The notes under the pieces are model-generated. The model saw only the letters and a list, made by a program, of their open reading frames with translations. It was not told where the DNA came from and did no database searches. From IMG/VR virus record IMGVR_UViG_2974732567_000001, positions 36,199 through 100,198 of that record: a DNA stretch of 64,000 nt; one strand, given 5' to 3'. Below are positions 1,786 through 51,368 of this stretch, piece by piece; the first letter of the stretch is position 1; every line of letters starts with the position of its first letter. The position numbers and the translations under genes were made by a program. The DNA is from a virus (taxonomy: Duplodnaviria; Caudoviricetes).

Positions 1786-4515
1786 ATGATACAAATTATA
1801 GACAACTTTGAACATAGAAGTAAATTGCCTAACTTTACTAGAGACCAATTTACTACATTAGAGGACATGAAAAATGTTCGTGATGAGGATATCGACGAAG
1901 GACATATATCTTATTGCATATCCACTGATAAACACTATAAATTTAATGTTGGTAATGTTGCTGACGAACTCACAGGAAAGTGGCGAGAATTCAAAGGTGA
2001 AAAAGGAGATAAGGGAGAAGACGGTAAACCTGGTACAAGTGTTCCATCTAACCTTACTGCATTTGTCTTTAAGTCTAGCGAAAGCGAACCTAGCAAACCA
2101 GTGGGTGGTAGTTGGAACTTAGATACTAATATCTTTACTCCTCCAATAGGTTGGTATACAACAGATCAAGACATGGTCGGTACTATTTGGATGTCTTGGG
2201 CAGTATTTCAAACCGATGGTTCTATTTAGGGAGAATGGTCTACTCCGATAAGATTAACTGGAGAAAATGGTAAAGATGGACAAGATGGTAAATCCATAGA
2301 GTTCATATATAAAACATCTAATAGAACACCGACTAGTGCTGATAAACCTAGTAGCGTAAATGTAGATGGTAATGTACCAGAAGGATGGACTAATAACCCT
2401 ACCGGTATTACTGAAGGTACTCCATACGAATGGATGTGTAATAGAATCAAGACAGAAGACGTATGGTCAGATTGGAATGGACCTACAGTATGGGCTAAAT
2501 GGGGAGCTAATGGTAAAGATGGTGATGGAGTAGAATATATTTACAAAAGAACTATTACTAATGTTTCACCGGACAGACCTACTGAAGTAAGTCAAGAAGA
2601 TGAATTTGTTCCAGATGGTTGGACAGATGATCCTACAGGAGTTAATGAAGATAACATGTACGAATGGGTATGTGTTAGAAAGTATAGAGACGGATTCTGG
2701 GGAGAATTTAGTAATCCTGCTTTGTGGGCTAAATGGGGAGAGAAAGGTGAACCCGGTAAAGATGGAAATGATGGTACATCTGTTAATATTAAAGGAGAAT
2801 TAGAATCTACCACTGACCTACCAGAATCAGCACAACCAGGAGACGCATATGTAATAAATGGAGATCTTTATGTATGGGATGGTACAAAATGGAATAACAT
2901 TGGAGGAATAAAAGGTCCTGCAGGAGATTCAGCTTATGTGCACATAGCATTTGCAGATGGTGTAGAAACTGATGATGAAGGTATCGTAACTATAGTATAC
3001 GGTTTTACTACAACTGGTAGTGTTATAGGAAAAGCTTATATAGGTACTTATGCTGACCATACTGTAGCAGATTCGTAGGATCCACTAGCATACAAATGGT
3101 AGAAGAATAAAGGAGACAAAGGTGACACTGGAGAACCTGGAAAAGAAGGTCCTCAAGGAGTACAAGGTCCTGTAGGTCCAGATGGTAAGACTTATTACAC
3201 ATGGATTCGTTATGCAGAAGATTCAAATGGAACTGGTATAAGCAATAATCCCGATGGTAAATCTTACATCGGATTGGCATATAATAAAGAAACTGCTACG
3301 GAAAGTAATGATCCAGATGACTATACTTGGTCAAAGATAACTGGTGAAGATGGAGTACCGGGTCCTGCTGGTGAAGATGGAAAGACACTTTACACATGGA
3401 TCAAGTATGCAGATACAATGCCTACATCCTCATCTAGTACGATATACGATGTACCTAATGAGAGTACTAAATACATTGGTATAGCAGTAAATAAAGAAAC
3501 AGCATCCGAAGGTACTGATCCTATGGAGTATACTTGGAGTTTATTTAGAGGTGCTGATGGTACTAATGGAACAAATGGAAAAGACGGTAGAGATGGTAGA
3601 ATCACATATCCAGCAGGTATATATGACGCTACTGTAACATATACAGCCACTGATACTAAAGCACCATATGTGTTATATGGTGATACATATTATGTAATGA
3701 ATGTTACTACTAGTTGGACTGGTTCACAGAATGAAGGTAAAACTCCAGCAGATGATTATGAACAAAACGGTGAACATGCTACTTGGATACCTATGGAGAA
3801 ATTTGAAGCAGTATATGCTAAATTATTGATTGCAGATAATGGTACATTAGGTAAGTTCGTGTTTAATGGAAATTACATGTTTAGTCAAGAAGGTGTTAAT
3901 AGTGATGGAGATAGTTCTAATAATTATGAGGACTTCAATCCAGATAGCCCTGATTCAGGAAGTTTTTAGCCTAACTTCTATGTAAATGGACTTACAGGTA
4001 AAGTAGTTGCTAGGAATGCATATATAAAAGGTGCATACAAGGAACAAACTAAACTAGTAGATAATTCTAGTTATTCTTATGTAACACTAGGTGGAGGTAA
4101 TATAAGTGTAAATAGAAGTGTAGATGATATAATGGGGAGAGGTACACATCAACATATAAGTGTTGGTAGTGGTTGGATATACGATATTGCTAGTGCTGAA
4201 AAACAATGGTCGGCATATACTGTTACAAATATATCAGATACCCCTCTTTTGATAACAAATTACTTTTCCGGTTGTTTCAAAGCTTTTTGTTATCTTGGAG
4301 ATTTGTATTATGGAGTGATATTACCCTCTAAATACAGTTCTGTTACATTAACAAAGATAAGAGTACCGAATAATACTGCTATTGATTTCGATGGAATATC
4401 TAATGCTGGTTATGTAAATGAGTTAGTGTTGATAAGTCCAAATCAAAATAGGGTGGTTTCTATTGTAGATAATTGGACCGTGGGAAGGGTTACTTATAAA
4501 ATGTTACAACTCTAA
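1786..4515 (+). CDS. Collagen-repeat tail fibre protein, 909 aa (code 15)
   Basis: Four same-frame fragments joined at TAGs; Gly-X-Y runs (GEKGDKGEDGKPG); repeated YTWI.YA..../YIG.A.NK.TA.E..DP..YTW modules. Confidence 0.85.
2491..2740 (+). repeat. 16-bp direct repeat TGGGCTAAATGGGGAG (2491-2506, 2725-2740) marking an internal domain duplication
   Basis: Exact match; both copies encode WAKWG at the end of duplicated PEGWT/PDGWT modules. Confidence 0.8.
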
Positions 4516-5537
4516 TGAAAAATGCGATAGATAAGCAATTGAGATATTCTGTTAAAATAAATTACAGAGATGTTTTAGCATCTATCTGTGTAAATGAACT
4601 AACATCTTTACTTAGTAAAGTAGATTTCGTTCAAGATCGGTAGATGTTGAAAGCTATGATCTGTCATTGCGAAAGACAGATAGGGACCGACATTCCACTA
4701 GGATTTACTACTATATGTAATTTGTTCACTCCTTATACAGAACCTGAATGTTTACACGGTAGAGTAATATACAACCTATTCCAATTAGGAGGAGGTATAG
4801 AAGAAGCTCCGATTGATGGTAAGTAGTATGCTAGACAGAATGCTAAATGGAGTGAAGTTACAGGCGGAGGTGGAGGAGAAATAGAAACAAACACTCCTCT
4901 AGTTAAACCAATCATGACAGTATAGTGGACTAATAAAAGAACTGGTAATACTAGTAACTCACTAAACATTAATACTGAAATAGGGGATACCTATAAATGG
5001 AGTGGTAACTATATGTGGCAATCAAAGAAAAATTATAAAGATCCTGAAACTATGGAAAGTAATGTATTTAGTGAATTAACAGAAGATGGAATACAATCTC
5101 CTACAGTAGAGATGGAAACATTATCTAATGCTAATTACTATGTAACACTTAAAGCTCCTAAGACTGGTTATGAAGTAGTAGATGGACAGTTAGTACCAGC
5201 TACTGGAGATGACGAAGAAACAGTAAATAGTAAAATTACATTCCTATATCCTGCTTATTATGGAGTAGAAGGTAATATGAATAAACAATTAGTTTCTTCT
5301 AACAACATAACTATATCCAATATAACTACTAGTGGCAGTGAATATTTTGTGTACAAATATCCTAGTAATTTTCCTAAGCTGACTACTATTACTTAGAATG
5401 ATGCTTATAATGTTACACAAGCATTTAACTATAGTGAAGAATCATTCACAACTGATACAGGACTTAAATTAACAATGAGAGTATATACTTCTGCTAATCC
5501 AGGAGCGTTTACTAATGCTAAACTAAATTTTAAATGA
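4515..5537 (+). CDS. Tail fibre adaptor with foldon-like motif, 340 aa (code 15)
   Basis: TAATG coupling at 4513-4517; EEAPIDGK(Q)YARQNAKW resembles the fibritin foldon; C-terminal PAYYGV...YKYP domain resembles that of 622..1779. Confidence 0.75.
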
Positions 5538-8500
5538 CAGAGAGTATAATCACATTCCCGTCGAAGATTGGTAGTAATAACCCTAAAGCCTATGGAGCAG
5601 TTAATGCAACATAGGTTTCTGGGCATAAATAGGTTTTTACTACTAGTGATCTGTATACTATTTCTGATTCTATACTTAGCGAAAGTAAAGATAACACTAA
5701 TAATGATGCTATAGGTTAGAGGTGGTTCGTACAGAGTTCATAGGCTTATTACCAATTAATCAGCTGGGAAAATAGAAATAATAGTAGAGGTTGGTCAGTA
5801 GTGCAAGGCGGGAGTGGTGATGGAGGTACTAACATTGTTATATCAGATACTCCGCCTTTAGATACTAATGACATATGGGCCGATGACTCCGAGAAGTCAA
5901 TTCCTGAATATGTAAATGAAGATTTACAGAGCTTAATACAAGCTGTTAATACTATTCAATAGCAAATTAAAAAGTATGAATACGCATTTAACAATCAGTT
6001 GAGTTCAGGAGATTTCACTAATAATACAGCTGATGTAATTACTAGTGTAGACCCAGAATAGCCTGTAGAGTATACAGAAGAATAGAACCTAAAATATATA
6101 GGAACTAATACAGCTAGAGATCCAGAGTATCCAGCATACTCTGAAACAATGGTACCTAACCTTAAGCACTTATGTATTAAGGCAGGTAAATATACAGATT
6201 TACTAGCTAATCAAGATAAATTTTTAAATAGTGAATTATTGTGGTGTACCGATACCCAAAGGCTTTATATTAAAAGTGAAGGTAACCTTGTATGGATTAA
6301 CAAATCCGGAGGTGGTGGAGGTGAAGACCCAGACCCAGGAGACGAAGGCATGACTAAAGATGATTTAGATAAACTGGACTATATTGGATTTGTAGCTCCA
6401 AGTGGACAAACTTATCGTGTTAAGGTAAGTAACGATGGTAAACTTATTGTTTACATGAAAGAACTCGATACACCTCAAGCAGAACCAACTGGAGGACAAA
6501 CAGATCCTTCTACAGGTTGGGTGTATGTAACATCTCTGTATTTACAGAAATTGTACATTAATAGTTTGTATTGTGGTGGATTAACTGCAGACGAACACTC
6601 ATATAATTATTGCTCCCATAACTTTGTAGAACTATCCAATTTGACTGATGCTGATATCAATCTTAACGGTTTATCACTACAGTATTCTAGTGGTGGAACT
6701 AACTGGGAGGTTCTTCCTCTTGAAGGGCTAATTAAGAAAGGAGAAACGTTCCTCATTAGAGGAGCACAATGTTCAGTAATGGACGCGAATACTACTCGTA
6801 TTAAAGTAAATAGTTATGATATGGAGTGGTATGCTAAGGACGGAGGATTAATTAAGTTTGATAACACAAAAGCTAAATTCTACCTTACTTGGGGTGATAC
6901 TTCCTCTAGTGTAGCATCGCCATATAGTAATGTAGGAGGTAGTTATAAAGTTAGTAAAGGTTATATCGACTTAGTAGGATTGAATAAAGAGAATGCAGGA
7001 GATGCAGACACTATTGATGCTAAAGAGAATAGTCCTTATGCATATCTTAATTCTAATAGACTATTTACTAAGTATTATAGTATGGATCCAGTTAGTCAAG
7101 CAACTAAGGCTCTGAGTGCTAGAAATAACGCTAATGATTGGTATTTCGTAGATCTTACGAAAGATGTTATTCCTATGATAGAATCTTATACTCCTAAGGC
7201 TACTTATGAGCATAAAGACATATTCTACAATAAGACTAAATTAGACGATACTAAGCCTAATTATGTTACTTGTACTTTCGGTATTCAAGCTACTGCTCCT
7301 AATGCTACTAGATGTTTTAATTGGATATCTACCGAATATCACGATGAATTCCTATGGTATAAAAAGTCTACAGAGAGTGATTGGAATAAAGTAGAATCAT
7401 TTAAAAATGAAACTGGGAATAGGAAGTATTACAATAGAATTAGATCTGAATTTACTGACGGTACTGCATTTACTACTCATAAGGTTATAATCAAAAACCT
7501 TAGCGCAGGTACTTATGATTATAAAGTAGTAAGAGATGCTAATTATGAGAGTGATGTAATGCACTTTACAGTTAGAGAAGTAGGAGATGATTTCACTTTT
7601 GTTCAAGTATCAGATCAATAGGGATTCAGATGGGATGAGTATCAGATATGGAAATCATCAGCAGAATACATAGCAGAAAATGTACCAGAGATGGAATTTA
7701 CTGTTAATACTGGTGATATGACTCAAAATGGTAATCGTGTCAATGAGTGGATTGATTACTATACAGGTAGACAAGCTATGAGAGATTTCGAGGAAATGCC
7801 TGTTATCGGTAATAATGACCTGTGCCCTGCTAATATCTATCAGTTAGGTAATGGAGGCGATAGTTCAAAGATTAATCCTAAAAACCTATCATTCTTCTAT
7901 ACTTTTGAAATTGATGAAGAGAATCCACCTATATTCAATATTGAGGATAAAGAAGTGTTTATTGATTCTCTATATTCATTCAATTACGGTAATGTACACT
8001 TTATGGCTATCAATTCTGAAATTACAGATGGTACTGAAAAGAATGTATATGGACTGAGTACAAATGGTTTAGTATACTCTAATATGAAGACATGGTGTCA
8101 GAATGATATTAATAAGAATTCTGATAAAACATGGAAGATAGCATTTACTCATGAGTTACCATTTACTATTATTACCCAGAATGTGATCAGTAATTTCTAT
8201 TGGGATAACACAGAGAACAGTAAGATTGAAAGATCAGGTAGTCACTTGAACTATAATACTACAGCTGATAATAAGTACTGGTTTAGTAAATTCTGTCAGG
8301 AGAATGACATTAGATTGGCTATAGGTGGACACAAACATACCTATGCTGCTACATTCCCTTTAAAAGAAAATCCAGCTAGTACTATGAAACCTATTATCCA
8401 AGTAACCGAAGAAATGTTACAAGAATCGTTTGGTACTACTACTCTTGCTTCGGATGACTCTGATCCACAGTTAGAGGGTCAACTATTCCCATCTACATGG

Positions 8501-8914
8501 ATTGGTAATGATGCATATAAGACTCAAAAACACTTGTGTACATTTGAATTAGTAGAGAAGATAACAGCGCCTGTATATATTACTAATCAAGCTACAGGTT
8601 ATAAACACACTTCTAATAAAGAGTTGCCATCTCCATACACTCCTTGGGATCACTACTTCTTCCCAGCTACTATTACTCAAACTAGTCAAACGGATATTAC
8701 AGCTAAAGTAAATGCTGGGCAAAGATATCCTTTCTATACTATTTATAAGGTATCTGCGGATAATATTCAATGTACTACTAAAAAGATAAATTATCTATTT
8801 ACTTCTGCTGGTAAATATAATGTTAACATTCCTAGTAGTAGTAATCCTCCTGCAGCAATTGGTGGAAACGGAGAAATTAATAGTGGTAATGACATAATTG
8901 TTATAACAAAATGA
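5534..8914 (+). CDS. Lamin-tail-like + FN3 + calcineurin-like (purple acid phosphatase type) metallophosphoesterase, 1126 aa (code 15)
   Basis: ATGA coupling at both ends; LTD-like FVELSNLTDADINLNGLSLQY; FN3-like HKVIIKNLSAGTYDYKV; motifs SDQ(Q), TGDMTQNG, IGNND, THE, GGHKH. Confidence 0.85.
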
Positions 8915-11900
8915 ATTTAAAAAAGTATAATGAATCTACCGGCACTTGGGATATAATTTCTTCAGGTAATGCTTCTGGTATCATGGTTACTGACCCTCAC
9001 TTTTTAGAAGAGGGTCAAACCTTTAAATCCGTTAATCAGGTATTAGTGGATATGGACGATAAAGTAGAAGAGACTAAAAGAAATCTAAGCTGGGTCGTAT
9101 TAAATGGTACTATTGGTGGCGGAGGAAGCGGTGGTGGAACCACTGCTTCTATTAAGCTTACTGACAGTAGTATCGTTACTACTGAAGGCGTACATTATCT
9201 ATATTCTACTTCTACTAAGTTAACACTACATTATCTTATTAGTTCTACTAAACCTAATGAGAAGTATAACATATCTGTATCACTAGATGGTAATACTATT
9301 ATAAGTAATCAAGTAGGTTATTCTTCAGTATAGGGTACATTAGAAATTCCTAATATTGCTGAATTTTCTAGTTCAGCTAGTCACAGTATTGTTGTTACTG
9401 CTGAGAATACAGAAGGTATCTCAGTAAGCCCTTACTTACTTACTGTAGTAGAATCATCTATCAGTCTAGAATCTTCCGTAACTTCTGTAACTGCTACTAT
9501 AGGTTTACCATACAATATTACTTATAAAATAACTAATAAGGTATTAGGTTCTGAAACTTCTCTTATAGTTACTAATACAACTAATGGTATATCTAAGAGT
9601 TATTCTGTAGGAAAATTTACTTCAGTAGAACCTAAGTTATTAGATGTAAACTTCTTTGACTTATTCAATGGTGCTACTCCTACTGCTGGTAGTTCATATA
9701 CTATATCTGCGCAAGCTACTACTTCTGTAGATACTTAGGTAATTCAATCAGATACTGTTACTAATAAAGTAGTAGTAGAAGATGGACAAACACTAGTAGT
9801 ATTGGTAGATGGAATCACTACACAAGCTGATATAGAAGCAGGAACAGAACCAACAGAGTTCGCATAGTCTGGTAATATATCATTCTCATTTACTCCGTAC
9901 TTAGCAGGAGTATCAATTATATATTATGCTATCAGAATACAAAGAGGTACTATCACAACTGATATAGGTAACTTCGATGCTGATAGTAGTAATTTCAATT
10001 CTAACAGTTATGTGTTAAGAGGTAAAGCTCAAGTATTTAGTTGGTCTATTCCACAAGAAGAATCATACTTGGGAGACTATGTTATTACTTTAAGATGTTG
10101 GTCTGAAAAAGGTAGTCCTATAACTGATACTATCCTTAGATGTAATGTCATAGCTGCAGATCAAAGTTTGATTCCTACATAGAATCCAAACAATACTATG
10201 TACGCATAGTGGAATATAAAACAAGCTACATTCCCTCAAGAAACATCTGCTAAAATCTGGCCTAGTGTTGTATCTAACTTTATTATGCCAGGATAGCAAG
10301 AAGAACAATCTGTAACTACCAATTTAAATGTATATGATACTAATGGTATACTATCAGGTTTCTTGAATGAAAATGGATAGAGTAAATTAAGACTAGCCGG
10401 AGAAGCATATGGGGTAGTAGATTTACAACCATTCGCTGCATCTACTGCAGATAATACTAACTGGTCTAGACTAGGTTTTACTATATCTACTACATTTAAA
10501 ACAGACTTACATCCATACAATGATAGAAGTGTGTTCTTTATTGGAGATTACTCTTCAGATAATCAATTTCAAGAAGGTATTAAAGTAGACCTTGAAGATG
10601 TAGTTTGGAAGTATACAGACGGTGCTATTAAAGAAAGTATATCTTGTAAGATACAATAGAATACTGTAAATACTCTTGATTTTGTAGTAGATCAAAGTAA
10701 CAAGGAAGTAAAGATATTTGTCAATGGAGTATTAAATGTAGCCAGAGAGATTAAAGATAATTTCACATGGAGTAGTTCTAGTAAGATATATCTTGGGTGT
10801 ACTTACCAGAATGATAGACCTACTAATTTTAGTGATGTGGAATTCTATGAAATGAATTTATTCAGATCTCCACTAAATGATAAGCAAATAGTAATTAATG
10901 CTCTAAATGCTAGAGTAAGATCTACGCTTACTAGTACAGGTTCTGTAGACTTTACAGAGTATAATAACCTCAAATTAAAGAATTTCTTTAGCATTACAGA
11001 AAACAGTAATGCATCTACTTTATGGGACGATTCTACCGGTACTTATGCTAAGTTGAATTTTAATAGTTTGATAGGTGACGTAAATAGAAAACCACCATTG
11101 CCTGTAGCATTAATCAATTGCTCCAATTCAGGTTTTACTAAAGCTGTATACGAGGCAATTGGTCCTAATACTACATTGTATAATGGTTGTACATTCAGTT
11201 ACTTCGACCCAGATTCTACTAGTGGTTCAGCTGTATCTACTACAGATATGTCTATATAGATTCAGGGTACTTCATCTACAGGTTATAGAAGTAAGAACTT
11301 AGAGGTTGCTTTTAATAAAATACTAACAGACGATGAAGGAAAAAGCATAGGTCCAGAGTTATTCCAACCTAAAGCTACGTGGATGCCAGAGAATCAATTT
11401 ACTTTGAAAGCAGACGTAGTGGACAGTGCTCATGCTAATAATGCATCTATAGGTAAATGGATCAATGATAATGCAGATGTGTTATTCGATAAGACTCCTC
11501 CTATGCAAGAACTAGAAGCTAGACGACCTGTAGACTCTGTTACACCTAGTGAAGTACACAATGAAGTTACTATTAAGCATACTCTAGAAGGTTTTCCAAT
11601 CATTCTACTTATATAGTTTGATGGTACTAGTACTCAAGAAATGTTAGGTATATATTCATTTAACTTGGGTCGTGCTGCATACTACAACATGGGTATGAAG
11701 TTCTTAAAGAACTTTACTACTAAGATTAAGAATGTTACCGGAGAATATGTAGATCAACCTCTTCCTGCTTTCATTACTAAGTATGAAGCTTATAAGGTGG
11801 ATGAAAACTTCGGTAGTATAAATCAATAGTAGATTTACTCGTATGAATTCGGAGATAATGCAAACATAATAGAAACTCCAGAAGGTATACAACATACAGC

Positions 11901-14900
11901 TCTATTTATGTAGGATGACTTAACTGTATTACAGCACGTAGGTGAATTCAAATTTAATGGAGCTACATAGGATGCTACATCTGTAACTGATAATAATATA
12001 TGGTAGAGGTTGTAGTTATTATTTACTACTCTAGCTGGAATGACTGGTGAAGAGATAGATAAGTATAGGTGGAATACTATCAATAAAGGTTATGAGAAAA
12101 CAGGAGGAACTTATCCTGCATAGCAATCATGGTCTGCATTAGCTGATGATCTTACTTTAAGATTGAGTATTAGAAATGCTTATTCATACTTCATGATATG
12201 TGTAGTATTTGGGCTTGTTGACTCTCTAGGTAAAAACATGGTATTAAGATCGTGGAATGTTGGAGGATCTCTCACAGATTCTAATATGAACAAATGGTGG
12301 CCTTGTTTTTACGATATGGATACTGGAAATGGTATTAGTAATACTGGAGAAGAGAACGTGGCTAAAACCGCTTATATAGATGGTTTTAGTAATGCAGATG
12401 CTAGTTCAGGAGTAAACTCTTTAGTAATCAAACAAAATGATCCAAACAATGGTTACGATGAGTATTCTAGTAGATTATGGGATGTATTAAGAGATAGTAG
12501 ATTCATAAGTACTGGAGTATATTCAGGAAGTGATTACAATGGTTTATGGGACTTATGGAGAACTAATAGTTCTTTATTAACCAGTTCTTCTATGTATGTA
12601 GAAAATTACTTCAGTGCTCAAACGAAAAACTGTGGAGAACTTCTATACAACTATGACTATAGAGTAAAGTATCTTACTAAATACCAGAAAGATGAAGACA
12701 GTCCTGCTTCATATGCTAATGTAGAATTCTTGCATGGTACACGTAATGACTTTGTAAGAGATTGGTTAAAGAAGCGTTTGACGTTTATGGATGGAGTATT
12801 CTTGTTTGCTAACAATAATGTTATTTATCCCTACAACGAGAAAGGTTCATTTAAATGTGGTGGAGCTTAGACTAACAATTCTAAACTTACTGTTAAGATA
12901 AATAGTCCTGCTATTCTTACAGTAAATATAGGTAATGCTGCTGGTAGCGAGACTAGATATTATATTGAAGAAAATGTAGATACGGACATATATCTTTCAT
13001 CATTGTCATCTTTCAATACACAGATTACTGTTAATAATATGTCTGAAATAAGTAACATGATGGGACTAGATGAAATTAGGTTTCAAGGTTTTATGACATC
13101 TATGTCATTGCCTAGTATGTCCGAAATAGATATACAAAATACTAGTACATTATCATCGAATCCTATAGACTTTGCTACTATATTCGTTAAGAAATAGGAT
13201 GGTAAGAGTGTTTCAGATATTAGACATATTAACTTGTCTAACACTAGTTTTTGGTCAGGAAACAGTGGTGTTAACTCATTTCCAGTAGACGTATAGAACT
13301 ATAACAAATTAAAGACAATAGATATATCAAATGGATGTGTAACTTCACTAGCACTGCCTAATGCCGCACTATCTACTCTTACTCTAACAAATTCTGCGAT
13401 AGAAAGAGTAACTCTAGCTGACCAACCTTTTATTAGTAAAATTGATTTTACAGGATGTAATAAACTACAATCTGTAGAAGTAAGTAATTGTAACTAGATA
13501 ACGGAATTAGACTTACGTAATTTGAGTGACTTAACTAGTATCAATATTATTGGTTGTGCTAAGCTTGAAAGAATTTATGCACCTAACTGTAATAAGTTAG
13601 CCACATTTAATGTGTCAAATGCTAATGCACTTAAGTCTGTAACACTATCTAATTGCAATAATGCTAACTTAAGTATTAGTTTAGTAGGAGCTTCTAATCT
13701 TGAAGAACTGAATCTAGATAATACAAATACTACTGATGTAATTGAATTTGCACCAGGATTCAATAAATTGAAGGTATTAAATATTGCTTCAAGTAATATT
13801 AATGCATTTCAATTTGGAAATGATCCTGTAGCTACTACATCTACAGGTGAAAGAATACTAGATCTTAGTCCATTTACTTTTACTAATCTGTATATGTACT
13901 ATAATAGTTCTAAGTATGTAAAATTCAAGAATAGTAAAACCAACCCTTTAGAAGTTAATAGTTCTACCTTTAATAATTGTTCTAGTTTAACCAGAGTATT
14001 TGGACACATAAAACTAATATCAGGAAGTGTATTCAGTACTTGTCCTAACTTCTTTATACACGACGTACTAGAAGACGTGACTATTAAACCAACTAGAGGA
14101 CAATGGTATGGTCCAGATACAGATACTGCAGAAGGTTAGGAATAGTGGGATAACAATCAAGGATTAGAGACTAATATATCTATAGGTACTACTAATTTAA
14201 GTAACTGCTTTGTAGGAACTAAAGTAAACTTATACGATGTATATTATATATTGAACATGTGTGACAATGTTGAAAATATTGTTTCTATATTTCATTCTTG
14301 TTCAAATGTAATTACAGATTTTAGTAATCCTTTAAGTAGAGATACATTTAAATATTGCGGTAACATTACTAATGCTACTAATGCCTTCTACGCTACTAGA
14401 CTAACAGGTCCCATGTATAGTCCTACTCATACTGGAGATACAATTACTGAATACAATGGTTTATTAAGCCCTTTGAAGAAGTTAGTATATTGTAATAGTA
14501 TGTTTAAAACTACTGCTGGCAATTTCTACATAGATGATTTGTTCTTCGCAGAGATAGGCAACAATCAGTATTTACAATTGGCGCATCTGTATAGTATGTT
14601 CAATTACGGTGATAGCAATGTAATATTTGTGGATAACTGTGATGAAACTTTAACTTCAACAGAAGTAGCAGAGGGACGAAGAGCGTATGCTAGAGCATCT
14701 AAATTATTAAGAAATCTTCCCAATATAGATACTATAGCTAATATGTTTAATGGTTGTTGGTTTAATTTCGATACAGAAAGTACTGACGATAGTGTAACAT
14801 ATAGTCCGTTATTTGCTTATAATAATAAACTAAAAGTAGTTAGTTGGAGTTTCAGAAATATCAAAGCTAAAGGTTCATTGATTAATCTATTTGGTGGTAA

Positions 14901-16854
14901 TTCAGTATTTGATAGCAGCAATTTATTCTCTAGGCAAATAACTAAATTATTAGGATGTTTCTATATAACTTCTAATGATGGAGATAAGGTGTATTTCCCT
15001 ATACACAATAGTATGTTTAGGTAGATTAAACTTACTTTACAATACATAGGTAATGCAGAAGATATTAATCAAATTCCAGATTAGGCTGCTACATGTTTTC
15101 ATGGCGCTGGTATAAATAGAGTATTTGTTAGAGAGTCTGATGAAATATATCCTTATGATGTATTTAAAGGCGTTGTTAATCTAATTGCATGCCCGTGTTT
15201 CTTTGCTAACATAACTATTCCTAATTCCAGTGGTGTAGTATATGAACTACCAGGAAACATCTTCTAGGACTGTTCAAATCTAGTACAGATAACAGGTTGC
15301 TTTAGAAATCAATCAGTAAAGTATAAGTTGACAGGTAAAGGATTTACTAATTGTAAACTTACAAATGTTGCATATGCATTCTATGAAGATTCAAACAGTT
15401 ATACAAAAGAAGGAGGAGTTCCATATGGTTTGTTTTATATGGAAAGAGATGTAGTAAGATCTTCTACTGGTTGGAGTTATGCAGATGCACTTAGACTAGG
15501 AATAACTGAAAACTTTGGTATAACTGAAGAAGGAGAACATGATCCTGATGCAGTACTTCCACAAACTATTGATTACAGTGAATCAATAAAAGCTGTTAGA
15601 AGTAGTATAACTGATATGCGGTATGCATTGGCAAATTTCTCTAGCCCTAATGCGGAAGGATACATCAGAAAGCAAGTAGAATTAAATACTGTTGAAGATG
15701 CAGGAGATTTGATAATAACTAATGAAAATTACAATGTCTCAGAATTCATAGTAAATACTGCGTATGATCCGAGAGATCAAATACCTAATCCTGTGTATGA
15801 TCCTAATAATCCTGGTTCTACTCCAGAATATATTGATAATCCCAATAAGAATATACATAGAGTAATAAAGAATCCAAACTATAGTCCTTACAAGAAAATA
15901 TGGAATATTGATTACTATGATGGAGTATATGGTCTAGGGGATTTGATATAGAACAGCACTTTGTATCAGAACATACAATCTGGTGTTATAACAGATATTG
16001 ATCCTAATATACCATCAGAATTCTTCAATGAAGATGATATGCGATATCCTCTTAGTCCTGCTGGATAGCATAGATTAGATAGTATGAATTACATAGTTCC
16101 ATCAGATCTATTTAAGTATTGCGTCAATAATACTAATATTAATATATCAGATGTTCTCACAGGCAGTGGTAGAAAAATTGATAATGGAGTACAAAGATAT
16201 AATTATGGTATATATGGTAGAATACCAAATAGAATATTCAAAACTCTCACTAACATATCCAGTTTAACTAATGTGTTTGCGTATTGTTATTGCATTAATC
16301 CATATACTTGGAATGACGATAGTAATAATGGACAGATGTTCCCTTCTGATATGTTATCTAACAATACTGCATTAAAAAGCGTTTCAGGACTATTCCGTGG
16401 AATATATATACCTGCAAAAGTAGTTATACCTTCTACTTTACTTAGTAAGAACTTAGCTCTTACAGATATATCTTATTTATTCTATGATGCTACATTCCAA
16501 GGCTCTGCTGATGATGTTCAACAGTTAAGTGATACTACATTCTAGTATAATTATATATTACAGAATATATCATATGCATTAGCTAGTACCAGTTCTACTG
16601 GAGGATGGATGGGACAAGGACCTAAGAAGATAGGATCAAATCTGTTTACTCAATCTAAACATAAGAATCTTACGAATGTAACAGGTTTATTCTATGGAGA
16701 TACTTCCACAACAGGTTCTGTGCCAGAATTCTGGACATGGCTAAATAATCTTACTAATACGAATAAACAAAATGTATTTGCTTACATGAGTAAGAGTCTT
16801 ATCACTAATAGTAGTAGTATACCAGAACAATGGGCAACTAATATGAGGGATTAA
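8911..16854 (+). CDS. Giant virion-module protein: Ig/LamG-like + CotH-like kinase + LRR/BspA-type repeats, 2647 aa (code 15)
   Basis: Eleven same-frame fragments separated by TAGs; QGTSS..YRSKN, TLKAD, GIYSFN, GLVDSLGKNM, WPCFYDMD; LxxLxLxNxx and MF/FxxC repeats downstream. Confidence 0.8.
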
Positions 16855-32800: not shown

Positions 32801-34004
32801 ATTATATGGTAGCTCTGCATCAAGAATGTCTTCAGATGATCTTGATTATGTAGATCCATACTTGTCATTGACCATAGCTGGAGCTTCTTATGGTGGGCAT
32901 ACATAGTCTAAACCATACTTTGCTTATAATGACGCTTACTCTAGACAACCAGATGCTCAACTATATGTAACAGATTCTAATTATTCTATTAGTAATCTAT
33001 AGTCTGGAAATAGAATAAGATATTCTGGTACTAAGACTGCTAATGAAATATCAGATAGTTGGACATCATTTAAAGCTGCTGATTATCTAGATGTAGATTC
33101 TTCTCATGGAGATATAACTAATCTAAAATAGTTTAACAACTAGTTACTATTTTGGTAGAAGGATGCAGTAGGAGTAGCATCTGTTAATGATAGATCACTT
33201 ATAACTGATAATAATCAAGCTCCTCTTGTATTAGGTACTGGTGGAGTTCTAGATAGATATGATTATCTCACCACTTCTAATGGATCCGATAAATCAAATG
33301 ACAAGAGTATTGTTGGTACTCCTAATGGTTTGTACTGGTATGATGATAATAAGAATGAGATATGTTCATATGGCAATGGAATATAGAAGTTATCTAAAGT
33401 TAAAAGTGTTCAATCTTGGTTGAATACAGATAAACAAAAAGCTAAAGTAAGTATATATGACCCTAAATTTAATGAAGTACAGATCGGATTTGAAGATAAG
33501 GTTCTTACTTATGATGAACAAATTTAGTAGTTTTCTTCATTCAGAACATTTAATCCTGATGATTATCTGTCTTTTCCAGATAAGCTCTTGTATATCAAGG
33601 ACTAGATAATAAAAGAAAATGCAAATTTTCCGTTAAATGAAATGAAATCTAGGTTACAATTTGTAGTAAATAAAGATCCTTTACTTACTAAGACATTTGA
33701 TAATGTGTTCTTCAGTGGTGAATTCAAGGATGTTAGAAAGATGATTCAAGCCATTAAGTTTACTACAAAGACCCAAGAGAGTACAATATTTAAAGATAAT
33801 ACAGAAATAAATAATCCAATAGAACAGAGAGAAGATACATTCAGATTCGCTGTTGGCAGGGAGAAAAATCCAGTAGATGATATGTCTTTACCCAGTAGAA
33901 TGAAAGGTAAATATATGATATGTGATTATATATTTAATTGTAATGACTAGCATGATTTCAAACTCCCTAATATGAATACAACATATAGATATTCAATGGT
34001 ATGA
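29889..34004 (+). CDS. Tail stabilization/muzzle protein (Tstab), 1371 aa (code 15)
   Basis: NTFTGGMNLD, KGYHRDEVYRFGIVF, FGGDTYL, LGTGGVLDRYDY, SRMKGKYM. Confidence 0.85.
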
Positions 34005-36199
34005 AAAAGATAAGTAAAAGAAATAAATATGTAGGCGGAGGGATGACTCCTTATATGCGAACTGATTTCAATTCTCAGTTGCCCACACAATTAACCGCTC
34101 CATATTCTGTATAGCAATATGCTCCAGGTAATGCCAAACCTACTAGTTCAGCAAATTTCTTGCAATCAAGTAATTTTGCGAACATGATGGGTGGTTCTAG
34201 TAGTGGCGGAGGTATGGCAGGAATAGGTCAAGCTGGTGATGCTATTAATTCTATGATTAGTAATGTAACAGGACCAGCTACTGCTTCTACAGTAAGTGAA
34301 TCCAGAATGCAAACAGCAATGGGCACTATCAGTGGTACAGCCAAAGGTGCTGCTGCTGGTTTTGCAGTAGGTGGACCGGTTGGTGCTATAGTTGGTGGTG
34401 TAGCAGGTTTAGCTTCTGGTATTGCTGGAAAAAAAGGATCTGTCGCTATATCTAAAAATCCATATGATGATACTGTTGATATTAAATACGGAACAGGTAT
34501 CAGAGGAGGAGCTAGAAATAGAAGAAAATTACGTCGTCAGGCTGAACAGGCGCAAGCTAATGCTAGAAGTAATCAAGCTAGCTTACAAATGGGAAGTATG
34601 AATGAATAGGAATTTTATGAGGATTATGATAATGATATATAGACAATGGCACAAGGTGGTATGACAAGTAGTCTTGCATATGTAGATGACGGAGAGTTAC
34701 TTAATACTCCACAAGGAATCATCACAGAGGTACCAGAAGAAGGTAAACCTACAGATAGTAATTTGGTTAATCTGCCAGAAGGTACTAGAATACTTAGTGA
34801 TAAAAGAAAAGTACCAGGAAGTAAAGAAACATTCGCACAGATGGGTAAGAGATTAATGTCTAAAAAGAAGACAACTAGAACTGATAAATATGCAGAAAAC
34901 GCTGCAATGCTTAATGAGATGAATGATTAGGCTATTTACAATAAATTGTTTGCTATATAGGAAGGCACTAAAGTAAGTAGAAAAACCAAGAATGGAATAT
35001 AGGCAGCAGCTGGTGGTGATGTAATTACTGCAGCTAATAAGGGTAGGTATGTTAAAGTTGCAGACAGATTGTATAGACCCTGGAACTATTGGGAAGATAC
35101 ATATGACTCTACAAGGTATACTCCTAGTAAATATAATACTGTTAATACTCCTACTGCTGTGTCTAATAATCTTAATTTGAATAATGAGATTCAGAGCAGA
35201 GTTCCTGATGAACAAATAGCAACTCCAAGAAGAAATACTCCTAACTTTTTCACAAATGCCTCTTCTCTTGCTGCTAAGACATTAGCATCTGATGCTTTAG
35301 TAAATAGCGGAGAATGGAGAGGTGGAGTACCGTATTGGTTGTTGTCTGCGACAGGATCTCCTAGATCGACTAATGCAGAGTAGGCAATAACAAATGTATC
35401 AACACCTCCTGCAACAGTTACAACAGGAACTAGAAAAACTACTAAAAAGAATACTTTGATAGAACCTGTAAATAATGAGTTGGATCTTAGTGGAGAGACT
35501 ATATCAAGAGTAGGAGATGAAGTAGCTCCTTATATAGCTACAACAGGAACTACTAATACTACAGATAATTCAAGAAGTAATCCAACAGATAACAAAAACT
35601 GGTCACATAGTATAAATGATATACTTACTGATATTTCAGCGTTAGCTCCGACTATATCAAATATGTATGCAAGACCAGAACAGTTTAATGCTACACATAA
35701 TCCTTACGAATCACAAATTAGATCTACCATGGCTAATCGTAAGTTTGATATTAGTCCTGCTAAGAGAGCTATCAGAGAAAATAGATCTATAAGTAATTAC
35801 AATGCTGCTAATTATAATCCGAGTACAGGAGCTAACTTGGCTTACAGGTTGTAGAGTCAAATAGCTGCTGATAAAGCTATCGCTGATTTATATTCTACAG
35901 CTAGTAATGTTAACAATCAATATGCTGGTGAATATGCTAATACTTTAAACAGTCTCGGACAGCAAAGAGTTAATGCTACTAATATGGCTGTTGACATGAA
36001 TGCTAGAAGCAGAGCAGCTGCTAGAAATATTCAGAGAACTGCTTTAACTCAATTAAGTTAGTATGCACAAAATAAACAGTTGATGAAAAACCAGAAGAGT
36101 AGAGATATGGCTATGTTGGATATGTATGGACCGTTTCTTGAAGCTGGTTATAGTTCTAAAGATTTTGCATCATTCATGAAGAAATTTAAAAAAGGATAA
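34001..36199 (+). CDS. Virion cargo/ejection protein with Gly/Ala TM segment, 732 aa (code 15)
   Basis: GAAAGFAVGGPVGAIVGGVAGLASG; AYVDDGEL; position after muzzle. Confidence 0.75.
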
Positions 36200-36201
36200 T
36201 T

Positions 36202-37872
36202 ATGGCAGCAAATATGTATGATCAAGCCGCGTAGGCTCAATTTATAAATACTTATGTACCTATTAATTTTGGAGAGTTATATAGAATAGGTGCAGCACAG
36301 AAAGCTGCTATAGATGAAGCAGCGCAACGGTTTGGAGCTCAATTATAGAAATTTGGTGAGTTCCAATCGCCTTCTTAGATAGATACATAGAGATATTATG
36401 ATCTTACTATAGGTAGAGAAGATTTCCAAAATGCTATTAATCAAATGGTGGCTAATCCAGATTACTTAAAAGATGCAGCTAATAGATCTTAGCTATAGTC
36501 TATGATAAATAGTGTAGATTATTCCACATTAAGTAATCTAAAGTCTAGTAGAGACGCTATGTTAAAGCGCTAGGAAATAAATCAAAGATTAATGCTAGAA
36601 AATAGATTTAATCCGTTGTGGCATGATGTAGATTTTGCGAATTATGATACAGTAAATAGCAAGATATTTGATGATATTACTCCATTACCATATATGTCTA
36701 TAAGAGAATTAGTAGAACCTTATGTAAACAACCTTAAAGGAGAATTTTTAGGAGCTAAAAACGGCTTTTTGTGGAATGGAGTTACTGACGAAATGACAGA
36801 TGCACAATTACAAAACAATCTCTCAAGTATACAGAATACTCCTCAATATCAAAAATATTTAGAGACTTATCAGAAGATGGGTCTTAGTCCTGAGCAAGCA
36901 CAACAACAATTGCTTAATGAAATATATACAGCCGGTCGTGAATATACTTGGAATAAAGCTGATAGAGATCCTATGGCTATAGAAAATATGAGATTGCAAC
37001 GTAAATATGCATCTGCTGCAAATACAGCAAGTAATCTACTTAATCTTACCAGAGTATTGGAATCGGATGCAACTCGTAATCATTTGCTTAAATTTACAAA
37101 TCTTACCCCTTAGGAAGTGGATGCTTTTGCAGAACAGGGATTCAAAGCGCTTACTCCTGAAAAACAGCAAGAAGTACTTAGACTTAAAGATCCAGGTTAT
37201 GTAGAAAATCAAATGAAGAATTATTATGATTCAGTTCTAAAGGATACAAGAAGAAGAAGTACTGCTGAAGATGCTGTAATTGATCTTATGTCTACTCCTA
37301 TAAGCTATGAAGCTTCAGACAAATATGCAGCATACGGAACTACTGGAAAACAAGATAGAAACGGCTTCTATACAGTGAACAATAGTTCAAACTTTAAATT
37401 AGCGAAAGAATTGGTATACAAGACTATTGGAGAAGAAGCAAATAAAGGATTGCAGAAATTTATTAGTCTTTGGAATGATGGTAATAATTTCTCTAATTTC
37501 AAAATATCTTCAGACTAGAGAATGATATCTGATGGAAAAGATATTTATGTAGTGAAATATGCATATATACCAGAAGATCAATTGCTAAAAGCCAGAATAG
37601 ACAGAAAATCATTGTCTGCATTGGGTACTCCTGTGACTGTAGATGCTGGTCTTAAAACCACCGAGAGATATGATAATAGAGGAAATTTAGAAAGTACTAC
37701 TACATCTTCAAGTACCCCAGTTAAGAGTATACGAATTACAGTATTACAACAATTACCTAGAAGCGGAGAAGCTGCTATAACATCTGATGCAGCATGGATG
37801 GATAAAAACCTAGGAATACAAACAAAAACACAGGATATACAGGATATGTTATCTTAGGAAGAAAACCTTTAA
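36202..37872 (+). CDS. Virion cargo protein, 556 aa (code 15)
   Basis: MAANMYDQAA(Q)AQFINTYVPINF start; same-frame fragments joined at TAGs. Confidence 0.75.
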
Positions 37873-37883
37873 TATAATAATTT

Positions 37884-40800
37884 ATGAAATTTTCTGACGA
37901 TTTTTTATCAATAATAAATAGAACTAGTGATAGTCAATTTGGTACTGGAGATTATGGACATATTGACGATGAATATGTTCCTACCAGTTAGGAAGAATAG
38001 ATAGAGGCTCCAGAGCAAAGTGATGAATCAGAACTTAGTTCTCTTAAAAAAAAATTAGATGATATATATATGCCAGTAGCTTTTATGACTAACCCACTTA
38101 CTGCTATGGTATATGGTGCAAAGACTGGTTATGAACTACTTAAACCATAGAAGGATTCATTAGGAAGAACTACTACATTAGCAGAACAAGCTCTTAATAT
38201 AAACACTAGAGACGCTTTGTCTTTAAATGTTACTTCTAGGTAGAAAGAGTTGATGAATACAGAGGGTAAATGGTTACCTGAAATTGAAGAAGCACAAAAT
38301 TATATATAGAGTCAGAAAGAATACATACAACTTCAAAATCAATTAAGAGCCAATCCTAATGATACAGAACTCATTCAAGTTTCTCAATAGAAACTGGATG
38401 AGTTATTGAAGTTATAGGAAGACATAAAAGAGAAAGCTGAAACTAATCCCTATCTTAGTAATGTATTCTATGGGGCTGTAACAGAAACTGTTAATCCTTT
38501 ATTACCTAGTAGAAAAATAGAAGCTTCTACAGTAAGAAATCAACTAGCAGAAGGTAGATTATATCCGTATTATGCGGAAATGTCATGGAAACAGAATAAC
38601 ATTGACTTTACTTAGAATAATCCTGCAGCTTTGAGTCAGTTAGATATAAAAGCTGCCAATCTACAGAAATAGTTAGATGATGCTAAATTGGAATATGACC
38701 GTAAGTCCAATGAGTTGAAAGATAAACAACAAAGCTTAAAGACAGCCCATTGGTTGCACGATCCTTTATTTGGAGTAGTTCCCATGCCTTTTTTTTATAA
38801 TCCAGAAGCTATAGATCCAGTACTTGATAAAAAACGTAGTGAAGTTCAAATATCAGCATTAGATCCTTCTACATGGAAATATGGTATAATGAACATTGGT
38901 AGTAGCGCCTCTGAGCTGCAAGGAATGAGTTGGCAAATGTTAACTGCTCTTGGTATAAAATGCGGTACAAAATTAGGTGGTAGTCCATTAGCTTGGGCTG
39001 CTGGAGAAGTTGTTGTTAACTCACTCTTCACATAGTATTTTAGACATAAAGAAACTGCGGGAGAAGTTATGTCTAACTATGTAGAAAAATTAGCTAATGC
39101 TGCTGCAGACAATAAATTCAATCTGCAAACGGTACTAGATGACTATACTAAGGAATTGCAGGCTATGGGATATGATACAAGTAGTATGAACGAAATGGAG
39201 AAACTTCAATTTGGTCTTGCTTATAACATTCCTACTAAAGATAGCAATTATAATTCTTTTGCTAAAGAAGCTCGAAAAGGTTTAACTCAGATAGAAGAAA
39301 CAAATAATGCGTTAGCTCTGGGGGATTACGCTGAAAATTTAGGTTTAAGCTATGGTGGTAAATTATTGAATAAATCTATTGGATTTAAAGCAATAATGAA
39401 TAAAGCTGTAGATCTGGCTACTAAAAATAGAACAACAGCTGCTCTTCTTGCAAAACTTAATTCTAAAATAGATAGAGCTGCTGTTAAACTTATGAAAAAC
39501 CCAGTGACTAGAATGAAAGTAAAGCACGTTCGAGACGCTGGAACAGATATGGCTTTGGCTTTAGGTAAGAGATGGTTGTTTGAAAGTACATAGGAAGGTC
39601 AACAAGGAATGATAGGTAGATGGTACCAAGATCTTCCTGATAATGCTCAAGTACCAGACACTTACAATATATTTAGAGGAGCCGCTACTGCAGGTAAACT
39701 AGCATTAGAAGCTAATCTAGCTTATAGAGGTATGCACTGGGATGATAAGTACAATACAGACGAGTAGTTGAAAATAGAAATGGGTATTGGTGGTTTTATT
39801 GGAGCTCTTATGGGTAGTGGAGCAAATATATCTAACATCAATGACATCAGACATCAACTACAAGCAGACAATGTAGTAAAAGCGTTAGCTGCGAAAGGAT
39901 TTGAGAATGCTGAAAATAACTTTAAAATAGCTCAATTCTTAGATTATGCTAGAAAAGGTAGAAATGTTGATGATCTAACTTCTAGTTTGTAGGACTTCAA
40001 AGAGTACAAGACTGAAGGAGTAACAGACGAGATGATCGACGAAGATATACGTTTAGCAAAAGATGTGTCTGCTATTTATAGAAATAAACTTATAGACTCT
40101 AATCTGAAAGAAATGGGTATAAATCGTAAGAAAGATAAGTTCTTTGAAAGATTTGTACAGTCTACTGTAAGTTTATACGATAAGTAGAAAGACGCTGAAA
40201 AAGCTAAAAGAGAAGGAGATGTTAACATAAATAACATTACTACTGCTATAATAAATAGTACTGATACTAATGATTTTAATTCTTTTATAGATGGAGAATA
40301 TGAAAGTTATTCTAAAAACTTAGAGAAAGAGAATGGAGAAGCGATATCTAAATAGGAATTTAAATCTAGTATTGTAAATGCGGTAGCTTCTAGAACTCTT
40401 GCCAAGACTCTTAATAATCTGCGAAAAGATTTAACTTCGCGAAAAAAGACTTTAGAACAATTAAAAGATGAATATGACTTACAAGTATCTACTACTGGAA
40501 TAGAAGGTATGTTGAAGTACATAAACGATCAATTAAAGAACATTCAAGAAGAACAAAATAGAGTAACTGGCGAAAACAAATGGATAAAGTATGTAATGCA
40601 AAAATCTCCAGAGTTCGTTAACCAACAGGAATTGGAAAAAGAAATGGCAATCAGTGCATTAAATACTGGTATCCTTAGTAGCTTAAATGCCCAGCTTAAC
40701 GCATATACTACCGGTAGATTATCTGTTAAAGATAGATATTTAGTAGAAAGAAAACCAATATACTCTAACTTATCGGATGAAGATAAACAAAGTATACTGT

Positions 40801-49800: not shown

Positions 49801-51368
49801 CAGAAGTGATGCATAATTTAAGGGGTGGGGATTATACGCAATATGTAAATAATTCTCTTACACTGTAGTTATACAAACCTACTAGTAATAAATAGTTAGT
49901 AAAGAAAGTAAACGATAAAGTAGAAAGTATAATACGTGCAAAGGTAGTTATGTCTGGAACTAATCTTAGACTAGATGATGATCAAATAAATGATATGATG
50001 TTTGGTAAGAATAATATAGCAGGTAGACTGAATGCTGTTAAAAATTATATTAGACAGAATAAACAAGATCCTAATCTAGTTACATTAACAGATGAGTAGG
50101 GTAATATCACAAATGATTTACTGAATTATCTACAAGGTGTTACGATATCTGCTAAAAATAAAGCTAACAAGATAGTAACTGCCACTTCTTCTTTGAATAA
50201 TTCGAGATATTATGAAGATCGTTTGAGATCTGCATTCTATGATTTACTTACTAATGATGATCCGATAGTAAGACAGTTAGCAGAAGATTTGGTTAAGTAT
50301 TCATTTATAACTAGTTATGATAATAGAACTCCTAACTCATTCTTTAACATAGTTCCTATGGAATATAAACAACAAATTGGTTATTTAGATTCTATAAAAG
50401 AAGCTATGAACAAACTGATAAGGAATGATATAGATTTAATTAGTGATGCATCTACTATGGAAGAACTTACAGATTCTATCTACCTCAACATGGTTAGAAA
50501 TTATTGGATAGATAACGATATAGTTCCTTTATATATACCTGAGGTAGAAGTAAGATATGGAGAAGAATCTAAATCAAATACAGTGTATTTAGCTAATTCT
50601 AAAGATGTCAATTACAATTCTATAAATACCGTATTCGTAGCTGTTGGAAGTTCAGAAATTAATAAAAATAACAAGTTTGTCAAAATCGGTGGTTCTAAAT
50701 CAACTAACAGCGTTTTATATTAGAGATCTGGAGTAATCGTAAATGAGGATGGTAAAACTATTGGAATTGTTTATGTTGCTATACCAAAGTTAGGTTTTAA
50801 CAATGGCGCAAGTTCTATATATGAGTTGTATAAGAATGGTGCTGAACAATCAGCTTTTTCTAGCAACAAGTTTACAGACAATATGATCAAACAAACCGTT
50901 GAAGAATTGGATAATATTGTTAAGAAATACACCAAAACTATTAACAATTCTCAATTCATTAAAGATGAAACATACTCTAACATAAACCAAGTTAAAGAAT
51001 ATCATAATTTGGAACAAGAGTTACAAAATGAATTAATAGAATCTTTTGGTGATAGTGGTATACAATCTGATCCTGAAAGCATAGATAGTGATCCTTCTTT
51101 AAATTTCGTAGATACTACTGATAATTCTATTACGATAGAAGATTTTAATGAAATAGATCAGATGCTAGGAGGAATAGAAGAGGCTAATGACTCTTTTGGA
51201 GAAGATTATGCTATGCCTGATGAATCGTATTTTGATTCTACGGAATTAGTAGACGATATTGTTGGTTCACTCTAGGATTCAGAACTTGGAATTACAGAGG
51301 TTAATGAATATCTGAATAATCTGAAAGAAGAAGGTAAAAAACGTAAAAAACATTGTAAGAAATCATGA
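37884..51368 (+). CDS. Giant virion RNA polymerase polyprotein with zincin domain, 4494 aa (code 15)
   Basis: Seventeen track fragments in one frame; HEAFH (44022-44036)..EEVLAEEFR; YRIPTQG and TGSDFDIDK (DFDID 48585-48599). Not every gap was read codon by codon. Confidence 0.88.

Follow-up and report, generated by a model that had tools for sequence, protein, structure and literature searches.

The crAss-like phages rank with the most abundant viruses in the human gut, and to our knowledge it is largely unknown how they recognize the Bacteroides envelope and breach it. A protein for comparison here is the kinase CotH of Bacillus; by polyphosphorylating CotB and CotG, two coat proteins, it serves in building the outer spore coat. 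Giant CotH-like phage proteins have been mentioned in the literature as unstudied (Benler et al. 2021; Roux et al. 2020/21; Macadangdang et al. 2024). We analysed two adjacent genes, open reading frame (ORF) A and ORF B, in the right-hand 64 kb (hereafter the window, whose positions are used below) of a 100,198-bp phage record bearing terminal repeats (IMG/VR record IMGVR_UViG_2974732567_000001). When TAG is read as Gln (table 15), positions 5534-16854 yield exactly these two ORFs, which overlap by an ATGA at 8911-8914 read directly in the sequence. Our analysis makes it probable that they form a widespread, mobile two-gene phage cassette for a pair of giant, fibre-like appendage proteins, each centred on an enzyme fold, that would act on phosphate groups of the host envelope. 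The genes and their two enzyme domains are as follows.

5534..8914, + strand: ORF A, fibre-like phosphoesterase protein, 1126 aa, 8 in-frame TAG codons read as Gln
7598..8344, + strand: metallophosphoesterase catalytic domain of ORF A (aa 689-937), Pfam PF00149 Metallophos, 28.4 bits, above the cut-off of 21.5
8911..16854, + strand: ORF B, giant protein with LamG, CotH-fold and leucine-rich repeat (LRR) regions, 2647 aa, 29 TAG codons read as Gln
11095..12807, + strand: CotH-fold kinase-like core of ORF B, ~570 aa (aa 729-1299), with large insertions

The pairing of the two genes was surveyed in 80 IMG/VR loci, whose cores share 24-96% identity, and was judged where the upstream DNA was sufficient. 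A gene encoding a lamin-tail domain (LTD) and a phosphoesterase lies directly upstream on the same strand at every such locus except L080, the sole locus seen with broken adjacency, where the phosphoesterase gene is found 7.4 kb upstream. There (L080:1-7405; G001:C1:93261-96338, a 208-kb phage contig), four opposite-strand genes intervene between the pair, the phosphoesterase lies inside a 1696-aa open frame and the CotH/LRR gene encodes 3526 aa. In a 247-kb IMG/VR phage contig (L083:5351-21438) two tandem copies were found, of 918 + 2143 aa and then 1005 + at least 974 aa, showing that the pair has been duplicated as a unit. In the 80 IMG/VR loci and in GenBank phages, each domain block of the two genes has its counterpart, and the order is unchanged. 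The pair is present in Suoliviridae (cr113_1), Intestiviridae (crAss002), 179-kb non-crAss Bacteroides phages (DAC23) and Bacillus phage G, and Lak megaphages match the CotH core (the core alone). The first-pass annotation, made from the sequence of the window alone, had proposed to look for co-occurrence across Crassvirales, and the pair indeed proved to be co-inherited, well beyond that group.

The cassette occurs under three genetic codes, namely the standard code, a TAG-recoded one (5-16 TAGs in the core) and a TGA-recoded one (L057 and L060, with 6-12 TGAs); the loci of this comparison are L053-L058, L060, L064, L067, L072, L074 and L082. The 179-kb phages DAC16-23 and SJC03 (L016-L029, and L085 for DAC23 33350-44984) share the whole cassette with ORFs A and B at 65-70% identity over both genes, closer than crAss002 from another crAss family (52-59%), which suggests, as far as sequence identity can tell, that the cassette may have been transferred between unrelated phages with common hosts. 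The core was also found in two contigs of metagenome-assembled genomes, assigned to Erysipelotrichaceae (water buffalo rectum; L090) and Paludibacteraceae (yak rumen; L091) and sharing 64% and 36% identity, respectively; probably these are phage sequences that ended up in the bins of bacterial genomes, which makes their labels unsafe as hosts. That every phage CotH fibre has a phosphoesterase partner was ruled out by hankyphage p00, which represents a distant branch of these fibres and in which a profile search found no such partner while its positive controls matched. The pairing is therefore a property of the giant LamG/CotH/LRR family, not of all phage CotH proteins.

The identity of the core of ORF B was examined by sequence and by structure. 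The key residues are the following.

Core of ORF B: Q785-G-T-S, K795, K833, D1104-x3-K1108-N1109 and Y1134-D1135-M-D1137

The five motifs by which a CotH-like kinase had been recognized in the letters alone were found at the right places (QGTSS at 11263, YRSKN at 11284, TLKAD at 11401, VDSLGKNM at 12217 and FYDMD at 12307). A six-frame search of the genome gave no PF08757 (CotH) match, and searches of Pfam, NCBIfam and PDB sequences with the core, alone or as family profiles, gave no CotH match; neither did searches of PDB sequences with the distant members L065 and L083. Family profiles built with whole proteins were swamped by LRR matches, and the exhaustive search for relatives used the core only (aa 670-1340; P0002 numbering equals domain numbering + 669). 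The 441 relatives recovered in this way are mostly giant proteins of 2500-3500 aa in which the core lies at a similar position. When the domain alone was excised from IMG/VR loci and aligned, PF08757 was matched by 17 of 35 relatives (best E 8.9e-10), L065 scoring 27.1 bits against a gathering score of 23.8, and these matches centre on the D-x3-K-N...Y-D-x-D segment. The core family profile in turn reaches 30 proteins for which a PF08757 label had been precomputed, with E values as low as 1e-48.

An AlphaFold (AF2) model of the core reached a mean predicted local distance difference test (pLDDT) score of 81.4 and a predicted template modelling (pTM) score of 0.86. Foldseek placed it in PDB with 5jd9/5jda (E 3e-6, prob 1.0), all other chains having E>1. 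VIA-align against 5JD9 gave Z 20.7 and a root-mean-square deviation of 3.5 A with 348/358 CotH residues aligned, the next-best fold being HipA at Z 8.1. The two programs thus agree on 5JD9 for the CotH-like kinase fold that had been suspected. Together, the transitive homology, the structure and the reach of the family profile establish the CotH assignment, despite the lack of a direct Pfam match for ORF B itself.

Alignment of ORF B with 21 PF08757-annotated proteins revealed invariant columns at Q785, G786, S788, K795, K833, P864, G894, F895, G913, Y1093, D1104, K1108, N1109, Y1134, D1135 and D1137, among which are the Lys, Asp, Asn and Asp residues named by the first-pass annotation. K795, K833, N1109, D1135 and D1137 never vary among the relatives with a residue there (182-184 of 184), and D1104 and K1108 vary once each (182/183 kept), while overall identity among the 184 core relatives is only 25-65%. 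Judged from these residues, the core carries the pattern expected of an active phosphotransferase, not that of a decayed fold.

These data bear on a quite unlikely alternative, in which one or both enzyme domains are exapted folds that no longer catalyse a reaction and serve a receptor-binding fibre for binding or as rigid spacers. The CotH proteins of Mucorales are invasins and bind a receptor of the host, the ORF B copy is too divergent for a Pfam CotH match, it carries insertions of ~300 aa relative to 5JD9, and B has been interpreted by GenBank curators as an 'internalin-like receptor-binding protein', all in keeping with such a role. Polar residues expected in a kinase active site and kept in 182-184 of 184 relatives despite 25-65% identity argue against it, and the same question arises for the partner, ORF A.

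ORF A combines its phosphoesterase domain with several beta-rich regions, listed here.

5534..6523, + strand: N-terminal region (aa 1-330), without Pfam or PHROG match, ending in a Gly-rich linker
6524..7243, + strand: LTD-like beta-sandwich region, Pfam LTD match at 6593-6775, all-beta model with pLDDT >85
7286..7570, + strand: Fn3-like N-terminal domain of purple acid phosphatases, PF16656 Pur_ac_phosph_N, 20.8 bits, below the cut-off of 30
7607-7624, + strand: phosphoesterase motif with D694
7706-7738, + strand: phosphoesterase motif GD728xxQ731
7808-7822, + strand: phosphoesterase motif GN760-N761-D
8144-8161, + strand: phosphoesterase motif with H873
8324-8344, + strand: phosphoesterase motif GH933-K-H935
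8345..8911, + strand: C-terminal beta-rich extension, from the secondary structure of the model and conserved columns in the family alignment

The seven metal ligands of purple acid phosphatases (PAPs) sit in the motifs DxG, GDxxY, GNH(D/E), VxxH and GHxH, and the His of GNH(D/E) is a catalytic helper, not a metal ligand. A model of ORF A from the LTD to the C-terminus (aa 331-1126; pLDDT 88.6) shows the two-domain PAP fold, an Fn3-like N-domain followed by a phosphoesterase sandwich. The top 23 Foldseek matches of this model were plant PAPs and purple acid phytases (E 5e-18 to 2e-14; kidney-bean PAP at E 4.9e-18), with PhoD next at 1.2e-10. Six of the seven metal-ligand positions are kept (D694, D728, N760, H873, H933 and H935), whereas Gln731 replaces the Tyr of GDxxY, so that the canonical set of seven ligands is incomplete in ORF A, and Asn761 replaces the His of GNH(D/E). 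All six ligands and both substitutions are invariant or nearly so in 25 sequences of 36-77% identity. ORF A thus has a PAP fold with a conserved, family-specific metal site and is not a true 'purple' PAP; it is likely a hydrolase. The earlier description as purple-acid-phosphatase-type therefore stands for the fold (Foldseek E 5e-18) and fails for the canonical active site (Gln731, Asn761). Its placement of the phosphoesterase behind LTD- and Fn3-like domains is borne out by the Metallophos match above cut-off and the PAP-fold model, with the LTD (PF00932, 26.9-28.5 bits, cut-off 34.3) and Pur_ac_phosph_N matches both below cut-off. The LTD-like region is the best-conserved part of ORF A across loci, and aa 1-330 are the least conserved, with 22-47% identity or no match in distant loci.

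The loss of two canonical PAP residues would suit a fold reused for binding, but the six metal ligands, and even both replacements, are (nearly) invariant in the 25 phosphoesterase sequences. Unless there is catalysis, or at the least binding of ligand and metal, such conservation in both proteins would be difficult to account for, and a pair of enzymes is the reading that we retain.

Around its core, ORF B is composed of the following regions.

8911..10410, + strand: N-terminal region with a conserved ~70-aa head, a Gly-rich linker at 9115-9138 and beta-rich modules, without Pfam match
10447..10890, + strand: LamG / concanavalin-A-like lectin domain, PF13385 Laminin_G_3, 26.4 bits, below the cut-off of 27.6
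12988..14010, + strand: leucine-rich repeat region, LRR_EndoS PF23952 at 30.2 bits (cut-off 27.9) on a cut piece, LRR_4 at 24.9 bits
14011..16851, + strand: C-terminal ~850-950 aa, internally repeated, with recurring Phe-x2-Cys motifs

ORF B as a whole matches PHROG 9915 (E 3.5e-26). A consensus for the ~70-aa head is conserved among the N-termini of 50 members of the family, and the N-terminal region is presumed to be the virion-attachment part. The LamG-like domain announced ahead of the core was located, its Laminin_G_3 score falling just under the cut-off, as does that of the Sialidase N-terminal model PF02973 on the same region (24.5 bits, cut-off 26). For the ~1250 aa of LRR/BspA-type repeats described behind the core, only part of the description holds. 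About 340 aa (aa 1360-1700) score as LRR, with classical LRR models only; the family profile of ORF B matches internalin-J 3bz5 (E 1.7e-14) and, weakly, the cell-surface proteins 4fs7 and 4gt6 within the same stretch. The last 850 aa gave no match in a Pfam search, here or in 4 relatives, and hhalign against the LRR region (probability <4%) does not support reading them as a mere continuation of the LRR. They contain an internal duplication (aa 1721-2150 versus 2151-2647; hhalign probability 97%, E 3e-11, 107 columns; window 14071-16851). One distant relative carries a precomputed PF03382 label. The C-terminal end is the least conserved part of ORF B, with 75% identity to cr113_1 and 37-40% to crAss002 and the DAC phages, which fits a receptor-binding tip, as we presume this variable end to be. 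An antisense ORF inside B (13083-13544) is unsupported as a gene, requiring two TAG read-throughs.

This architecture bears on the main rival of an action on the host envelope, namely a modification at assembly time, in which the CotH domain would phosphorylate structural proteins of the phage (itself or A) before lysis and the phosphoesterase would trim or reverse the modification. We consider it unlikely. It has the merit that phosphorylating structural proteins during shell assembly is the only proven role of CotH, the purified protein autophosphorylating as well (PMC7821199), and that ATP is plentiful inside the infected cell, which would solve the problem of the phosphate donor. Strict co-inheritance of A and B also fits an enzyme and its partner or substrate. 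However, the translations of A and B, on reading, contain no Ser/Lys/Arg-rich repeat like those of CotB/CotG, the lectin and LRR domains point outward, toward host ligands, and the diversification of the C-termini of relatives by diversity-generating retroelements (DGRs) marks receptor binders.

The recoding on which the two ORFs depend is supported by the genome. In-frame TAGs number 0-1 per ORF in the early blocks on the minus strand versus up to 55 in late ORFs on the plus strand, and a tRNA with anticodon CTA (CUA) lies at genome 24176-24250, ~12 kb ahead of the window start. This tRNA, called tRNA-Pyl by ARAGORN, adjoins a tRNA-Met just before the TAG-rich late block and is likely the TAG suppressor. 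The tRNA and the concentration of TAGs in late genes justify reading TAG as a sense codon, and both features that mark a TAG-to-Gln recoded (code 15) phage, late-gene TAGs and a CUA-anticodon tRNA, are found here. Under table 11 the A+B region splits into 10 pieces of at least 80 aa; the figure of 13 or more pieces given for the standard code is fair in view of the 37 in-frame TAGs across A and B. The further expectation that standard-code annotation would hide the pair was not borne out, as the GenBank records of cr113_1, cr109_1 and cr52_1 (93-95% identical) list both genes at full length, under the labels 'phosphatase' and 'internalin-like protein'. Late expression enforced by TAG recoding would be suitable for modification during assembly as well.

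The cassette lies behind genes for tail proteins, the nearest being the following.

4515..5537, + strand: tail protein and possible adaptor, 340 aa, table 15 ORF, PHROG 25379 'tail protein' (E 6e-7)

The start of ORF A overlaps the stop of this gene (ATGA at 5534-5537). The two genes upstream of ORF A match PHROG tail-fibre and tail-protein families, supporting the tail-fibre module in which the first-pass annotation had placed the pair, and lysis genes follow the cassette in the relatives cr113_1 and crAss002. The small genes at 517-1779 (420 aa) and 4515-5537 are weakly homologous (~250 aa, 24% identity, E 8e-5) and each precedes a long fibre gene, an arrangement that fits repeated adaptor-then-fibre pairs. 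An N-terminal 'plug' common to A, B and the upstream 909-aa fibre was rejected, no significant similarity being found. Further along the window (37884-51368), two long ORFs stand one after the other, the first of 4494 aa with 55 in-frame TAGs and the second of 1473 aa with 20; these are probably giant virion proteins typical of crAss-like phages.

The genomic position also bears on a very unlikely alternative, that A and B are delivered effectors that would enter the host envelope or cytoplasm and rewire host proteins, the LRR arm binding a host protein. An LRR joined to an enzyme is a common layout of injected bacterial effectors, the pair of phage G lies among non-structural genes, and a similar proposal, manipulation of host signalling, was made by Roux et al. 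for CotH-like DGR targets. The virions of crAss-like phages carry very large cargo proteins, and this too would agree with delivery. Against delivery, the genes stand in a tail-fibre block, right after tail-protein genes and before lysis genes, relatives have BppU_N baseplate anchors, and a 2647-aa multi-domain protein with a lectin and a fast-evolving end resembles a fibre. The pseudo-enzyme and injected-effector explanations are both less likely than enzymes that work on the envelope from the tail.

According to the reading that we favour, both proteins would be made late, once TAG suppression is on, and would be anchored to the tail by their N-terminal regions; the LamG domain and the variable C-terminal end of B would bind the host envelope, and during adsorption the two enzymes would attach phosphate groups to its glycans or proteins and take such groups off (or cleave them). 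Display of A and B on the tail is likely, as judged indirectly from the PHROG tail matches, the fusion of a BppU_N (PF10651) baseplate anchor to the CotH domain in some relatives, the kinship with DGR targets and the hankyphage particle proteins (see below). The lectin domain, together with the reported distant kinship of CotH to Fam20-type secretory kinases, suggests a glycan as the substrate. In its specific form, a virion-displayed phosphoryl-transfer machine, CotH would phosphorylate a capsule or lipopolysaccharide sugar in the manner of Fam20B/POMK, with extracellular ATP or another donor, and the phosphoesterase would cleave phosphate-linked groups, so that a receptor is created or unmasked; to this we give little probability. 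That A and B perform a true writer/eraser cycle on one substrate we purely infer, and hold much less probable than the general reading.

Several observations weigh against an action of the pair on host-envelope phosphates. ORF B has no PF08757 match, either whole or as the cut core, even at E 10, and the sequence searches gave no residue-by-residue alignment of the core to 5JD9. In B. subtilis CotH, mutation of the catalytic D228 or the metal-binding D251 abolishes activity (PMC7821199), and the putative equivalence of Asp residues of the core to these two follows from the order and spacing of the motifs. ORF A has neither the Tyr ligand nor the GNH(D/E) His of PAPs, and its chemistry may differ from theirs. 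The pairwise identity matrices of A and B correlate strongly (Mantel r 0.95; 0/2000 permutations reached that value), which speaks for the pairing but is partly expected from shared ancestry alone, and the neighbours of the phage G pair are not obviously structural. The literature searched holds no activity, substrate or virion proteomics for this protein or its close relatives. Moreover, a kinase outside the cell needs a phosphate donor where ATP is scarce, a puzzle shared with cellulosomal CotH (PMC12774918).

The pair, with intact active-site residues, spans three genetic codes and phages as diverse as crAss-like podoviruses, 179-kb Bacteroides phages, a Bacillus jumbo phage and, as judged from the core, Lak megaphages; this breadth points to a step of infection or of virion assembly whose biochemistry is conserved and still unexplained. 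Some carriers can be grown in culture (crAss002, DAC16-23 and phage G), which makes the question accessible to direct testing. If true, envelope phosphoryl editing would be phage-host surface chemistry of a new kind, common to crAss-like phages, Lak phages and phage G.

Among the closest described phages is cr113_1 (Buchavirus coli, Suoliviridae), in which gp57 'phosphatase' and gp56 'internalin-like protein' have the same order and neighbours as A and B. Identity is 94-98% over most of both proteins (94-96% for ORF A and 95% for the core of ORF B), and only 85% in the LRR region and 75% at the C-terminal end of B. The stretch itself is a near-copy of annotated Buchavirus genomes and adds no new biology. 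The GenBank records of cr113_1, cr109_1 and cr52_1 carry no CotH label, but the homologues of B in cr124_1 and cr7_1 are labelled 'spore coat protein-like protein', showing that the likeness to CotH had been seen by annotators before. In crAss002 (Jahgtovirus, Intestiviridae), the corresponding genes are gp19 'phosphatase' and gp20 'transferase', with 52-72% identity to A and 37-59% to B; there, too, the cassette adjoins lysis genes, and it is written in the standard code, in contrast to the TAG recoding here.

Bacillus phage G, a 498-kb jumbo phage of a Firmicute host, encodes the adjacent gp352 'metallophosphoesterase' and gp353 in the same order as A and B. gp352 matches the LTD-to-phosphoesterase profile of A at E 5e-40, gp353 shares 28% identity over 80% of the core, and both proteins are smaller (866 and 2055 aa). 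A further group comprises the CotH-like DGR targets (Roux PC_00012; Macadangdang 'domain group 3'; hankyphage p00), proteins of >2000 aa in tail modules that likewise combine carbohydrate-binding, CotH-like and LRR parts. They end in a C-type-lectin variable region rewritten by the retroelement, whereas ORF B has no such end. The 2245-aa fibre of hankyphage (Bacteroides phage p00; L089 31489-38226) matches the N-lobe of the core weakly (28.5% over 140 aa); this DGR target is located after baseplate genes and is annotated only as a misc_feature 'hypothetical protein'. Large tail proteins encoded after the tape measure of hankyphage were detected by mass spectrometry in particle preparations. 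In the literature searched, no paper links CotH with a phosphoesterase in phages.

Compared with cellular enzymes, ORF A shares the Fn3-like domain and phosphoesterase sandwich of kidney bean PAP (1KBP/4DHL) and Bacillus PhoD (2YEQ), with a TM-score of 0.67 on the target, and adds to this layout the LTD-like domain, the 330-aa N-terminal part and the C-terminal beta domain. The core of ORF B has the same fold as Bacillus CotH (B. cereus 5JD9/5JDA; B. subtilis; PF08757) over nearly the whole CotH chain and the same order of Lys, Asp-x4-Asn-type loop and Asp-containing metal loop, at ~15% identity to 5JD9 and with ~300 aa of insertions (671 versus 358 aa). Different from Bacillus CotH, it is embedded in a 2647-aa protein with lectin and LRR regions, with no CotB/CotG-like substrates nearby. 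Both genes are already labelled in public records, and it is their conserved pairing that is the interesting part.

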